This document shows, one piece after another, positions 5,991 to 60,074 of a stretch of 64,000 nt of DNA. Source of the stretch: Eledone cirrhosa. Taxonomy: Eukaryota. The stretch covers positions 24,552,001-24,616,000 of the forward strand of contig OZ024762.1 of assembly GCA_964016885.1 (NCBI GenBank), in the 5' to 3' direction. The notes beneath the pieces were generated by a model. That model was given only the letters and a program-made list of their open reading frames with translations. It was not told the DNA's origin and ran no database searches. Position 1 is the first letter of the stretch; the number at the start of each line of letters is the position of its first letter. The translations under genes and the position numbers were made by a program.

Positions 5991-7263
5991 TACTACTATT
6001 ATGACTTACTATTAGCAGTAGTAGTAGTAGTAGTAGTAGTAGTATATTTACTTCATATTCATCTACTCTAATTATATAATTATTGTTTTAATAACTATCC
6101 TAAGTTATATTATTAAAAATATAGTGCGTAGTCAGGAGTTTTACTGCTGTTAATTATTATTCTTCTCATCCATATTGTTACGATGATGATATGCTTGTCC
6201 TAGATTCATTGGTGTTAAACTACTGAATGTATTACAAGTCTCCTCCACTGGATAGAATGCTAGTCCATCACAGGGTTAACTCCCAGCTGCTGCCAGTATC
6301 GGTTTTCAGCTGAGTTCACTAATTAATCAACTTCCCTCAAAACTGTTATAGTCTCTTACCATGGGTTTCAATTCTTTGTCATGCCCATACTATCGGAGCT
6401 GTGGTCACTCAATTCTGAGAAGTAGTGGCTCTACCTGGAGCAACTCTCTGATCTCAGAGCTACAAATCTGTCCAGTGATTCTTCCTTGAGACATTCTAAC
6501 CACATGCCCATAGTATTGGAACTGTCATCTCTCAATTCGGAGAAGTAGTGGCTCTTTCTAGAGTGACTCTCTGATCTCTGTGTTACACACTTTATCGAAT
6601 AACATTAGTCCAAAGAATCTTCAAAGGAATCCCATTTCGGCCTGCAAATTAATGAATTAAGAAAGATAACCAACCTGGACAAAATTATCTTTCGGTCTTC
6701 TGAAAGAAAAGCCATCCATTTTGGAATCCTATTTGAATTAAAATCTTCCAACGTAATTTTAAAGAACCATCTTAGGTAACAAACTAATTAATAATTTTAG
6801 TAAATCCCTCAAAATTCTTCATTAACCTCTTCAGTGTCATAGACGAGATAATTTGTTCTAACATATTTGAACTCTTTTCCAACAGTTCATAACTTCAAAG
6901 CTAGATATGTATTGTTAATAAATATTTCTTTAAAAATATAGTCATTTTACAGGGGAGGAAAAAAAAACCCCCACCACAGCAACTGTAGCTGTGTAAAATA
7001 TATGCAGCAGTAAGCAGGTTAATTAATTGAAATAAATTATTTCAGTAGATATATAGTCATGAAATGGCAAAATAGAACCAGGTATATGAAAAAATATATT
7101 TTCACAACTACACTCAGTTTTATTGAGTGTTATGGTTCGTGATTCCAGGCATAACTTTATGTATTGAAATTAGTTCTTTTCACTTACATACACTTAAATG
7201 GCAGTATTATTTAATATTAATAACTGATATTGTGCATAGCATATACAAAATTCATTATTATTA

Positions 7264-7298
<35 letters not shown>

Positions 7299-7567
7299 TA
7301 TCATTACTGCTACTACTCCTACTACTTCTACTACTATAACTACTACTACTGTTTATATATATATTTTATATATATATGTATATATATATATACATATACA
7401 ATATATATATATATATATTTTATATGTATATAAGTATGTATACATATATGTATATATATATATATACATATTTATATATATATATTAGATAAAAAAAAGC
7501 AATTTTTTTTCCTACTTCTGGTGGCTATAGCTAAACATTGTGGCTAATGATCTCTTGTTCGAGGTTG

Positions 7568-7742
7568 TGCATGGGTTACAATATTTTTGCTGCTCTGCCT
7601 GCATGTAGTGGGTTTGTTTGGTTACCCATCAGTTGCATGTCTTACAGGTATGGCAGGGAGTATGCGGCAGACCCCTATTTGGGACACAGTATTGGACCAG
7701 TCACCGGATATGGGGTAGGTCTTCCGTTTCAATCCCAGCATG
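7568..7742 (+). promoter_or_regulatory. Cluster of RBFOX-binding (U)GCAUG elements around the 67-nt exon
   Basis: TGCATG at 7568, 7600 and 7634 (the last ends 6 nt before the acceptor AG), and GCATG at 7738 downstream of the donor. Confidence 0.7.
7648..7714 (+). CDS. RBFOX: RBFOX (Fox-1/A2BP1) family RNA-binding protein, penultimate coding exon (67 nt, phase 2 to phase 0)
   Basis: cttacAG|G TAT GGC AGG GAG TAT GCG GCA GAC CCC TAT TTG GGA CAC AGT ATT GGA CCA GTC ACC GGA TAT GGG|GTaggt = YGREYAADPYLGHSIGPVTGYG. Matches the recalled Fox-1 C-terminal motif (YGRxYAADPY...YG), has canonical splice sites and joins 22941 in frame. Confidence 0.92.
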
Positions 7743-8111
7743 CTTGTGTGTGCCTTGTCTCTTTATCACTATTACTTTTTTGTATGTATATATGTATGTA
7801 TATGTATATATATATATATATATATGTATATATTGGATGTTTTGTCTACATATATATATAATATATAAATATATATATATATAATTTATATATATAAATA
7901 TATATATATATAATTTATATATATAAATATATATATATATAATTTATATATATAAATATATATTTATATAATTTATATATATATAATTTATATATTCATA
8001 TATATCTATCAATATATTTATATATATAATATATATATATACATACATATATATACATATGTCTACATATACATATGTATATACATACATATATATATAC
8101 ACATACATATA

Positions 8112-8172
<61 letters not shown>

Positions 8173-8362
8173 TATTTTCTGCTAGATTTAAAATATTGTA
8201 GATGTTGTGTTTTAAAGTTTGCTTGCTGCCAGCCCATAGCCTAAAAGATTTTACACATATTTTGGGTGCTTTTTTCGGAAAGGCATTTAACGTTTTTTTT
8301 AACAAAAAAAGCAAAATAAAAGGAAAAAAGAAAAAGGAGAAAAATGGCAAAATGGCCTAAAA

Positions 8363-10168: not shown

Positions 10169-11648
10169 CCGCCCATGTTTTTCGTGGTCTACCTCTACCA
10201 CGTCTTCCTTCAACTGGCATTTCCTGGCACTTCTTCACCCATCTGTAATCCTCCATGTGCATCACATGTCCATATCACCTCAGTCTCCTCTCCCGTACAC
10301 TATCCCTCTCAGACACAGTTTCTCTCTCAATACATTTATGCTGGGTCGTTCACGCACATTTACACTGCACATCCAATGGAGCATGCTTGCCTCATTTCTC
10401 TCCAGTCGTCGCATATCCTCTGCAGTTGCTGCCCATGTCTCACTACCATGCAGCATCGCGCTCCTCACACAGGCATCATACAACCGGCCTTTCGTACGCA
10501 GGGAGAAACCCTTCTTCGTCAGCAGAGGAAGCAGCTCCCTAAACTTCTTCCAACCCGTCCTTATTCTAGATACTATGGCCTTGGAACACCCTCCTCCCAT
10601 GCTAATCTGATCTCCTAGGTACCGGAAGCTATCCACCACTTCTATAGCGCCCTCCTGTTTGAAAAATGTGTCTATCAATGCGACTTCTACTGTCTAATTT
10701 CCCTGTATATCTACTGCATACATATTTCTCCCTACCTGTTAGTTTGCCTGCTATCCCGCTACATCTCTTGTGTACCCAGGATCTGCATTGTGTGTATTTT
10801 ATAGAATTTATGCCAGTTCCTTTTCTGCATATCGAACATGGCCATTTCCCTGACGGAATCAGGGTTTTGTCCTCTTTTCTACTCATCAACACTTTTGTCT
10901 TAGCTAGGTTCACTCTCAGTCCTCTTACTTCCAACTGCTGTTTTCCATAGCCAGAATTTATTCTCTAGCTCCTCTACTTATTCTGCTATAAGAACCAGAT
11001 CGTCAGCATAGAGAAGTTCCCATGGACAGCCAGTCTTAAACTCCTCTGTTATGGCTTGGAGGACTATAATGAACAAGAGCGGGCTGAGGACCGAACCTTG
11101 ATGTACTCCTACTTCTGTCCTCACAAGCCATTCCTCAACACCTAGCTTCCTTAGGGACCACCAAATGACAGATCAGGCTACCCTATCACAGGCCTTCTCT
11201 AGGTCAACAAAGTCTAAGTATAGTGGCTTATTTTTTTCTAAGAACCTCTCTTGCAATTGTCTCACCAAGAAGAGGGCATCTGTTGTACTCTTCCCAGCCA
11301 CAAAACCAAACTGCATCTCATCTAGTTTGACCCTTTCTCTAATTAGTTGTGCTAATATCCTTTCTGCCACTTTCATAACTTGATCCATCAGTTTTATACC
11401 CCTATAATTGCTCCTCTCCAGAGCATCCCCTTTACCTTTGTAGCAATTTATGAGAATACTGCTGCACCAATCTTTGGGTATGACACCACCATATATAGCC
11501 TGATTGATGATGCGTGCAACCAGTTTAGTGCCTACGTCCCCTGATGCCTTCAGCATCTCAGCAACTATTCTCGATGGTCCAGCAGCCTTACAATTTTTCA
11601 TTTCCTTAATCGCCTCTTGGACCCTATATTCGTCAATCTCAATAGCTG
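10168..11648 (-). pseudogene. 5'-truncated, frameshifted RTE-clade LINE (reverse transcriptase fragment)
   Basis: ORF pieces KAAGPSRIVAEML, NYRGIKL, QFGFVAGKSTTDALF, FVDLEKACDRV, ELLYADDL (YADD 10999-11010), GLRVNLAKTKV, FRYLGD, MLHGSETW. Contains stops, frameshifts and an internal deletion. Confidence 0.92.
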
Positions 11649-12001
11649 TATACATATGTATACTTATTCAAAACTCAGAAATATTTATATATATATATAT
11701 ATATGTGTATGTATATAAATATTTATATATATATATGTGTGTGTGTGTGTGTATATATATGAGGGTGAGTCGATGTAGGCTTATTAAATGTTTAGTTTAT
11801 GCTTTATTTGTAGTCATAAATTTTAAAATATATATTCTACTAGGGAATTATAATTTTTTCTTCATTATTCATATTTATATACACGATACTCAATTTAAAA
11901 TATATACGTTACATTTTACTATTAAAACTTTCTTCTGACATATATTATTTTTTTTTTATCTATATATGTATGCAGGTATATATATATATATATATATATA
12001 C

Positions 12002-19398: not shown

Positions 19399-19925
19399 AA
19401 CCTACATAGGTGTGAGCTATAACAGCAACAATAGTCCTGGGACTCCTGTGATTAAAACACCTGTAAAACCTATGAGATGCTACCTCATAGGTGGACAGCT
19501 AAACCTACATAGGTGTGAGCTATAACAACAACAATAGTCCTGGGACCCCTGTGATTAAAACACCTGTAAAACCTATGAGATGCTACCTCATAGGTGGACA
19601 GTTAAACTTACATAGGTGTGAGCTATAACAACAACTAGTCCTGGGACCCCTGTGATTAAAACACCTGTAAAACCTATGAGATGCTACCTCATAGGTGGAC
19701 AGCTAAACCTACATAGGTGTGAGCTATAACAACAACAATAGTCCTGGGACCCCTGTGATTAAAACACCTGTAAAAGCTATGAGATGCTACCTCATAGGTG
19801 GACAGTTAAACTTACATAGGTGTGAGCTATAACAACAATAGTCCTGGGACCCCTGTGATTAAAACACCTGTAAAAGCTATGAGATGCTACCTCATAGGTG
19901 GACAGCTAAACTTACATAGGTGTGC
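19399..19925. repeat. Tandem repeat, ~102-bp unit x5+
   Basis: Unit aacctacataggtgtgagctataacaacaacaatagtcctgggacccctgtgattaaaacacctgtaaaacctatgagatgctacctcataggtggacagct. Starts inside a truncated piggyBac MITE (19270-19398). Confidence 0.9.
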
Positions 19926-22011: not shown

Positions 22012-22782
22012 CCTTCTATGATCAGTTACCTCTGTCAGTCATTGCACTGTGGTCATATGTAGGTCTGGTGGAAGCATCTTTAAGATATACATCAAGGTCA
22101 TTTTTTTTTTTTTGTCAACCCTTATGCTTAGGAGTTCTGGGCCTCCTATGATAAAGTTACCACTAACAGTCATTGCACTGTGATCATATGTAGGTCTGGT
22201 GGCTCCACCTTCAAGATATTTCATCAAGGTCATTTTTTTTTTGTCAACCCTTATGCTTAGGAGTTCTGGGCCTCCTATGATAAAGTTACCACTAACAGTC
22301 ATTGCACTGTGATCATATGTAGGTCTGGTGGCTCCACCTTCAAGATATTTCATCAAGGTCATTTTTTTTTTTAACCCTTATGCTTAGGAGTTCTGGGCCT
22401 CCTATGATAAAGTTACCACTAACAGTTATTGCACTGTGATCATATGTAGGTCTGGTGGCTCCACCTTCAAGATATTTCATCAAGGTCATTTTTTTTTTGT
22501 CAACCCTTATGCTTAGGAGTTCTGGGCCTCCTATGATAAAGTTACCACTAACAGTTATTGCACTGTGATCATATGTAGGTCTGGTGGCTCCACCTTCAAG
22601 ATATTTCATCAAGGTCATTTTTTTTTTGTCAACCCTTATGCTTAGGAGTTCTGGGCCTCCTATGATAAAGTTACCACTAACAGTTATTGCACTGTGGTCA
22701 CATTTAGGTTTGGTGGCTCCAGGCTCTATCTTCAAAGTATTTCATCAAGGTCATTTTTTTTTTTTTTTATCAACCCTTATGC
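22012..22782. repeat. Tandem repeat, ~129-bp unit x6
   Basis: cctcctatgataaagttacc at 22142, 22271, 22398, 22527 and 22656, plus a diverged copy at 22012. Confidence 0.92.
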
Positions 22783-22940
22783 TTTCTTTATCTGGTAATT
22801 ATTTTATCATTTAAAAAAAAATATATATTTTGTGTGTTTGTCTTAGAAGTCAATATTTCAGTTGTTGACATCTTTTTTTTTTCCAGATCTTATCATGTCT
22901 GTATTTTGTAATGTTTTTATTTTTCTCCGCACTGTTACAG

Positions 22941-22985
22941 GCTACTGTTTACCGAGGTGGGTACCAGCGGTTTGCACCCTACTGA
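22941..22985 (+). CDS. RBFOX: RBFOX terminal coding exon ATVYRGGYQRFAPY* (PY-type NLS)
   Basis: Pyrimidine tract then ttacAG|GCT ACT GTT TAC CGA GGT GGG TAC CAG CGG TTT GCA CCC TAC TGA. YRGGYxRFAPY is the hallmark RBFOX C-terminus. Confidence 0.95.
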   Translation, partial: ATVYRGGYQRFAPY

Positions 22986-23126
22986 GATCACGTGAGTACT
23001 TAACTACAGAGTCCATGGCAAGAAACTCTTTTATCCCTGAATCTGACAGCTAAAGAGGTTGTCTGATTTTTTTTTATACAAAAAACAAACAAGTTTATAT
23101 AATATATATATATATATACATACATA

Positions 23127-59161: not shown

Positions 59162-60074
59162 ACAGGGTACGGACAATATTTGTTCGCAAGATTACTGTCC
59201 AGGAAAAGATAACACAGTAGTTTTATTTTTTAAGATATATTTATCAAACTTGGGTCAGTTTGTCTTCATGACTTGTTCTTTCGATCTCACTTGATAAACC
59301 CGCCATTGGCTTTGATGGCAGCCTCGGACTGTCCCCCGACTTAAACCCCTAAAGGCACTTGTGATCCTGGTCTTCAGATTGTCTTTCGTATTGCAGCTAG
59401 ATCTGTTGGTGTCTCGTTCCATTGCGCCCCACACAAAGAAGTCGAGGGGTTGCAGTCAGGCGAGCTGGGAGGCCAGATGTCTGAGAAAAACCACAGCATG
59501 TCTGGCTCCAGTGGGTGTTTCAACTTGTTGATCAGCTTCTTTGCGTGCTTCAGTCGCTTTTCTTGCATCGCTTTTGACAGAAATTGTCCTTTCCTCATCT
59601 TGTATGAAACGTAGCGAATATCTTCATGTACCACCAGCCTAATGAACTTGTCATCCACGCCTTTCTCCCTTGCAATGGCACGCATCGACTTGTTAGGTTC
59701 ATTGTTGATGATATCCTGAACTTCAGCGACAAACTTGGGCGTTCTGAAGGCGTCAGATCGTCGATCATGTGTTTTCCTCTCTGATATTGCTTCGAATCCT
59801 GAATCTTCCAATTCCTTTCTGACCTTTTCCACCATTTTCCTGCTGATGCTGAGAAAGTGTGAAATTTCCTTATTTGTTCTCCCGGCACGGATTCCAAGAA
59901 GAACTCTGTCTCTTCCACAAATTTGAAAGTTCAAAATTATTCATAATCAATTATTCTGAAAATAAATAATGGAAATATAGTCAGTTTTTATGAAGACAAG
60001 AGTGACAACGGAAGTAAATAAAATTTGCATAAAATTAGCAGTTGAAAATTATGAACAAAAATCGTCCAGACACT

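Follow-up and report, generated by a model that had tools for sequence, protein, structure and literature searches.

Does RBFOX decide, by splicing its own pre-mRNA, which C-terminal end its protein will carry? The question is raised by an octopus locus in which a 67-nt exon is preceded by three copies of TGCATG, the RBFOX element. A first-pass annotation of the window (the whole stretch of 64,000 nt that was analysed) had read this arrangement as autoregulation, with nuclear RBFOX repressing an exon that is needed for its own nuclear localization signal (NLS). Nuclear RBFOX is a splicing factor, whereas the cytoplasmic protein acts on the stability and translation of mRNAs. We analyzed the exon, its flanking introns and its homologues in other lineages.

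The 67-nt exon (positions 7648 to 7714, plus strand) is the penultimate coding exon of its gene and comprises one nucleotide plus 22 codons, YGREYAADPYLGHSIGPVTGYG. It is preceded by a CAG acceptor and followed by the donor GTAGGT (7715 to 7720, plus strand). All 22 residues of its product were identical to the Argonauta RBFOX protein P0002, and so were all 14 C-terminal residues from the last coding exon (22941 to 22985, plus strand), which in the inclusion frame reads ATVYRGGYQRFAPY up to the stop and ends in RFAPY, an R-X2-PY end. As judged from protein homology, the 67-nt exon is part of an RBFOX gene, of which the RRM and the other upstream exons are located outside the window; the identity with the Argonauta protein points to an octopod source. 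In the octopus homologue P0085, the RRM matched human RBFOX1 structures with an E-value of 2e-45, and a hand count on the alignment gave differences at 9 of 82 positions, so that the same RNA specificity would be expected.

Sequencing runs of related organisms were aligned to positions 7500 to 7785, an alignment able to show inclusion only. It yielded 16 RNA reads (4 from organism G and 12 from organism E), all of which were confined to the 67-nt exon within this interval; none of the 16 contained intronic sequence around it. At the 7647/7648 boundary, nine reads continued into sequence of an upstream exon; at the donor, eight reads from organism E passed into the last exon at position 22941. 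Both ends of the exon and its join to the last exon are real and spliced as predicted. The 67-nt exon differed between the window and organism E at 1 of 67 nt and the last exon at 4 of 30 (p 0.03, on small numbers); the lower divergence of the former is what would be expected of a regulated exon.

The intron before the last exon displayed some further features. Located 54 nt 5' of the last exon is another acceptor, preceded by a long U tract, which would add 18 residues in frame (22887 to 22940); it was used by none of the eight junction reads from organism E. The mollusc RBFOX proteins P0001, P0019 and P0021 carry an insert of 17–20 residues at the junction of the homologue of the 67-nt exon and the last exon, and the 17-residue insert of P0001 had no match anywhere in the window. 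Tandem arrays with units of about 120 nt were found in the same intron at 19500–19920 and 22040–22740. In the window at large, broken open reading frames on the minus strand resemble a LINE reverse transcriptase (10280–11667) and a mariner-type transposase (59374–59940), as judged by eye from their translations.

The exon has a length of 3n+1, and skipping it shifts the last exon to the +1 frame (22942 to 22995, plus strand). This frame reads LLFTEVGTSGLHPTEIT up to a shifted stop at 22993–22995, 7 nt past the normal one. Because of the 3n+1 length, skipping would swap RFAPY, a PY-type signal, and its stop for a 17-residue tail ending in TEIT and a stop. Altogether, 36 residues including 7 tyrosines are exchanged for 17 residues including none. 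Since the shifted stop is located in the last coding exon, decay of the skip mRNA would not be expected. The R-X2-PY end is present in P0002 and absent in the skip protein P0085, which has no R/H/K-X2-5-PY at any position. The claim that the exon is needed for the NLS stands as far as the reading frame is concerned, RFAPY being read only when the exon is included. When the hPY-NLS pattern of PMC3126832 was applied strictly, its hydrophobic motif 11–13 residues before PY was unmatched in P0002, as also in P0187, and matched in P0249.

The shifted tail matches the end of three RefSeq models from Octopus bimaculoides (P0084-P0086), in which the upstream exon is followed directly by the +1 frame of the last exon. 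Skipping is known here from these three predicted models, all from one species. A homologue search with the inclusion-form query, which favours PY ends, found 443 proteins; among the 120 listed, 115 were PY-ended, 2 had other ends and 3 were of the skip form. No inclusion model named for O. bimaculoides was present among these 120 matches, and the skip models could therefore result from a gap in the assembly. A search with the skip tail returned the three octopus models only from 44 candidates, a weak result since the shifted tails of other species differ in sequence. Translated by hand in the +1 frame, the last-exon letters of organism E gave the same ten residues as the O. bimaculoides models, and inclusion and skip forms are therefore on record for one last-exon sequence. 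In the shifted tail, the window and the O. bimaculoides models disagree at 5 of 17 residues, and the four last-exon differences of organism E change no residue in the RFAPY frame. This suggests that the shifted tail matters through what it lacks.

A short word after the normal stop (22986–22995, ATCACGTGA) resembles GTCATGTGA, found after the stop in four bivalve-like loci (L003, L006, L023 and L028) and supplying the +1-frame stop in three of them. This post-stop word may mark where the shifted frame ends in a conserved manner, or may belong to the 3'UTR as an element.

The motifs described by the first-pass annotation were all recovered, on the plus strand and with the three upstream copies within 80 nt of the exon. 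TGCATG occurs at 7568–7573 (site 1, at -80), at 7600–7605 (site 2, at -48 and directly 5' of a branch-point-like word) and at 7634–7639 (site 3, at -14). Site 3 occupies the pyrimidine-tract position, as had been claimed, and is flanked by the branch-point-like GTTAC (7621–7625, with its A at -24, predicted by pattern match alone) and the acceptor AG at 7646–7647. It also lies between this AG and an upstream AG (7631–7632), which would extend the exon by 15 nt in frame and was used by none of the nine acceptor-crossing RNA reads. Downstream, GCATG is found at 7738–7742 (+24), with 23 nt between the motif and the end of the exon; from its position, it predicts an effect opposite to repression. 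The sites are located in unique sequence between the two TRF arrays found (7252–7485 and 7783–8175), and blastn found no further copies of the stretch within the window apart from two chance matches of 16–18 nt, consistent with the earlier description of the sequence as non-repetitive. Tandem duplication was rejected as the origin of the three sites, no TRF array spanning them.

TGCATG was found 58 times in the window on both strands (27 plus, 31 minus), as compared to a shuffle mean of 47; with 8 of 100 shuffles reaching 58, there is no clear excess across the window. The cluster is the sole place in the window, on either strand, with three copies within 80 nt. At least three copies in the 100 nt upstream of the exon were obtained in 8 of 20,000 dinucleotide shuffles of that segment, and 2 of 1,418 YAG-ending windows of 100 nt held three sites, the one triple of the window being this cluster. 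Any hexamer occurring three times was seen in 257 of 5,000 shuffles of the upstream segment, so that the triple draws its weight from the word being the RBFOX element and the gene being RBFOX. RNA structure across the sites was unremarkable (z -0.82). A cluster of MBNL YGCY words at the exon was rejected as a candidate, as these were not enriched (1,610 of 5,000 shuffles). A DNA contig from organism H (depth 3.8) spans 7503–7763 with five substitutions and one 2-nt deletion, and leaves sites 1, 2 and 3 and the downstream GCATG unaltered; with an intron divergence of only about 2%, all four motifs would be spared by chance with a probability of 0.53.

We conclude from the sequence that feedback of RBFOX on its own C-terminus is probable. 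In its specific form, to which we give about even chances, RBFOX represses its own 67-nt exon via the three sites, yielding a shorter, likely cytoplasmic isoform when nuclear RBFOX is high. Nuclear RBFOX would bind the three TGCATG sites on its own pre-mRNA, and binding to sites 2 and 3 would block the pyrimidine tract together with the branch-point-like GTTAC at -24. Such a block would favour skipping of the exon. The resulting mRNA would escape decay, and its product would keep the RRM, lose the R-X2-PY end and be more cytoplasmic than the inclusion form. In the available part of PMC11874969, RBFOX binding upstream of an exon is associated with repression, with exceptions; the first-pass statement that upstream binding represses thus holds as an association and is not fully consistent as a rule. 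The location of mouse Rbfox1 and Rbfox3 is determined by the PY end at their C-terminus (PMC3126832).

A degenerate scan of metagenome contigs for the homologous exon returned 32 loci, of which 9 transcript-like loci were excluded and 23 genomic loci kept, representing 12 lineages with mutually unalignable upstream introns. All 23 genomic loci had a homologous exon of length 3n+1 with its GT donor at the corresponding position; the lengths were picked among 3n+1 candidates, and the count therefore means that such an acceptor exists in each locus. TGCATG was present within 110 nt upstream in 4 of the 12 lineages (shuffle mean 0.61; reached in 3 of 2,000 shuffles), GCATG in 5 (6 of 2,000 shuffles; positions -51 to -100) and the antisense CATGCA in 1. 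Other windows of the same loci contained TGCATG in 7 of 107 cases (Fisher p 0.014 against 4/12). The 110-nt width was selected after the positions were known, and at a width of 200 nt the signal was weaker (24 of 2,000 shuffles); with a motif-less locus representing one lineage, the count was 3 of 12 (32 of 2,000 shuffles). Among 929 hexamers upstream of the homologous exon, TGCATG ranked eighth, not first. (T)GCATG was absent from the 110 nt upstream in 7 of the 12 lineages, and none of the 12 had the triple. Motif conservation had been proposed earlier as a check on autoregulation; what the distant lineages display is a single upstream TGCATG in 4 of 12 and a cluster of three in none.

In one lineage with alignable introns, TGCATG was lost in L019, L025 and L027 and kept in L007, L010, L011, L015 and L022. 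In-frame acceptors were also observed 15–33 nt before the homologous exon in six loci (L001, L017, L020, L029, L030 and L031), and an extension from an upstream acceptor is present in transcripts and proteins of other lineages. A much broader scenario would be an old protostome circuit in which RBFOX sets its own nuclear-to-cytoplasmic ratio via a 3n+1 exon, strengthened to three sites in octopods, with octopus RBFOX and rat RBFOX2 having both kept the TE(V/I)T end from a frame switch that the bilaterian ancestor already had; we regard this scenario as unlikely. Conservation of the TE(V/I)T tail across invertebrates was rejected, the tail being found in none of 20 last exons of metagenome invertebrate loci and in none of 146 new representative proteins.

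The even chances given to a localization switch leave room for other readings of the same sites. RBFOX may repress the exon while the skip product stays largely nuclear, in which case the loop would cut splicing activity by removing the tyrosine-rich tail, all seven tyrosines being lost on skipping. According to the available part of PMC5577181, RBFOX2 in rat brain is mainly nuclear even though many cloned isoforms are without the C-terminal NLS, so that feedback could act on activity instead of localization, and the frame-shifted rat -12-40 isoform had no activity. However, P0085 is without any PY motif of the R/H/K-X2-5 type, and in mouse, isoforms of Rbfox1 and Rbfox3 that lack the PY end are located mostly in the cytoplasm (PMC3126832). 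We consider this reading improbable, with clearly lower chances than a switch in localization.

Somewhat lower still is the probability we assign to either of two accounts in which the three sites do not repress the exon. Bound RBFOX could select one of the two in-frame acceptors that lie 15 nt apart, slow down splicing of the upstream intron or, together with the site at +24, favour inclusion. The placement of site 3 between the two AGs, the in-frame upstream acceptors and extensions in other lineages and the GCATG downstream of the exon agree with these options; yet all nine acceptor-crossing reads used the downstream AG, none of the 16 reads was intronic, and three upstream UGCAUG would outweigh a single downstream GCAUG. 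The exon could also be effectively constitutive or under other factors, the triple being a functionless word that arose by chance or by local duplication. The 115 of 120 listed mollusc-like proteins that have the PY end and the exon fit a constitutive exon, with the inclusion-form query biasing this count, and three sites were seen in no other lineage. The word TTACA, two bases past both site 1 and site 3, is a hint of an old duplication, whereas TRF found no repeat across the sites. Chance is further opposed by the rarity of the triple in local shuffles, by the recurrence of TGCATG enrichment in lineages whose upstream introns cannot be aligned and, as regards other factors, by the lack of enrichment of MBNL YGCY words.

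Repression of the 67-nt exon by RBFOX would have its closest parallel in MBNL1/2 exon 5 (54 nt), where MBNL binds the upstream intron and skipping removes a nuclear signal, giving a cytoplasmic protein (PMC5786016, available part). MBNL exon 5 preserves the frame and codes for one half of the NLS, whereas the octopus exon is 3n+1 and sets the frame of the last exon; likewise, binding was demonstrated for MBNL and is predicted for octopus RBFOX.

The autoregulation described for mammalian RBFOX involves a 93-nt exon of the RRM and a cryptic exon that leads to NMD of Rbfox2 (PMC3126832, available part). These loops share an RBFOX motif, an RBFOX exon and negative feedback with the one proposed here. 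They cut the RRM or trigger decay, whereas the octopus exon is C-terminal, leaves the RRM whole and moves the stop within the last coding exon. Identity with the known RRM-exon and NMD autoregulation was rejected, given the C-terminal position and a shifted stop only 7 nt past the normal one.

Frame switches at the C-terminus are known from mammals, with FAPY or TALVP depending on Rbfox1 exon 19, an alternative end in Rbfox3, and FAPY or TEVT in Rbfox2 (PMC3126832, PMC5478600 and PMC5577181, in the parts available). As with skipping of the octopus exon, alternative splicing shifts the frame of the end and the PY signal is lost. Rat Rbfox2 has two stops 7 bp apart and the shifted end TEVT, and the octopus models likewise end in TEIT; a 40-nt exon of rat Rbfox2 is reported as an RBFOX target (both from the available part of PMC5577181). 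In mammals an extra exon is included, or the 40-nt exon further upstream (after VYQD) is skipped, whereas in octopus the YGRE..GYG exon itself is skipped. Among invertebrates, the Drosophila Rbfox1 gene has cytoplasmic isoforms that act on (U)GCAUG in 3'UTRs (PMC8595405, available part). The available parts of PMC5778076, PMC8742874, PMC5478600, PMC6884704, 10.1101/2024.12.02.626327 and 10.1101/2024.12.02.626316 report no splicing feedback at this exon, and in a literature search mostly outside subscription journals, neither the exon nor RBFOX splicing in cephalopods was found to be described. By analogy, the proposed loop would be of a known kind, splicing-factor autoregulation with the logic of MBNL1 exon 5, and new in using an exon other than those of the RBFOX loops already known.

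Since MBNL already removes its own nuclear signal, the gain would be a new case and its age rather than a new principle. The specific exon and its three sites are named, and the proposal is testable with one minigene. A switch set by RBFOX itself, if true, would couple what is spliced in the nucleus to control in the cytoplasm, and would do so in a nervous system with an evolution separate from that of vertebrates.
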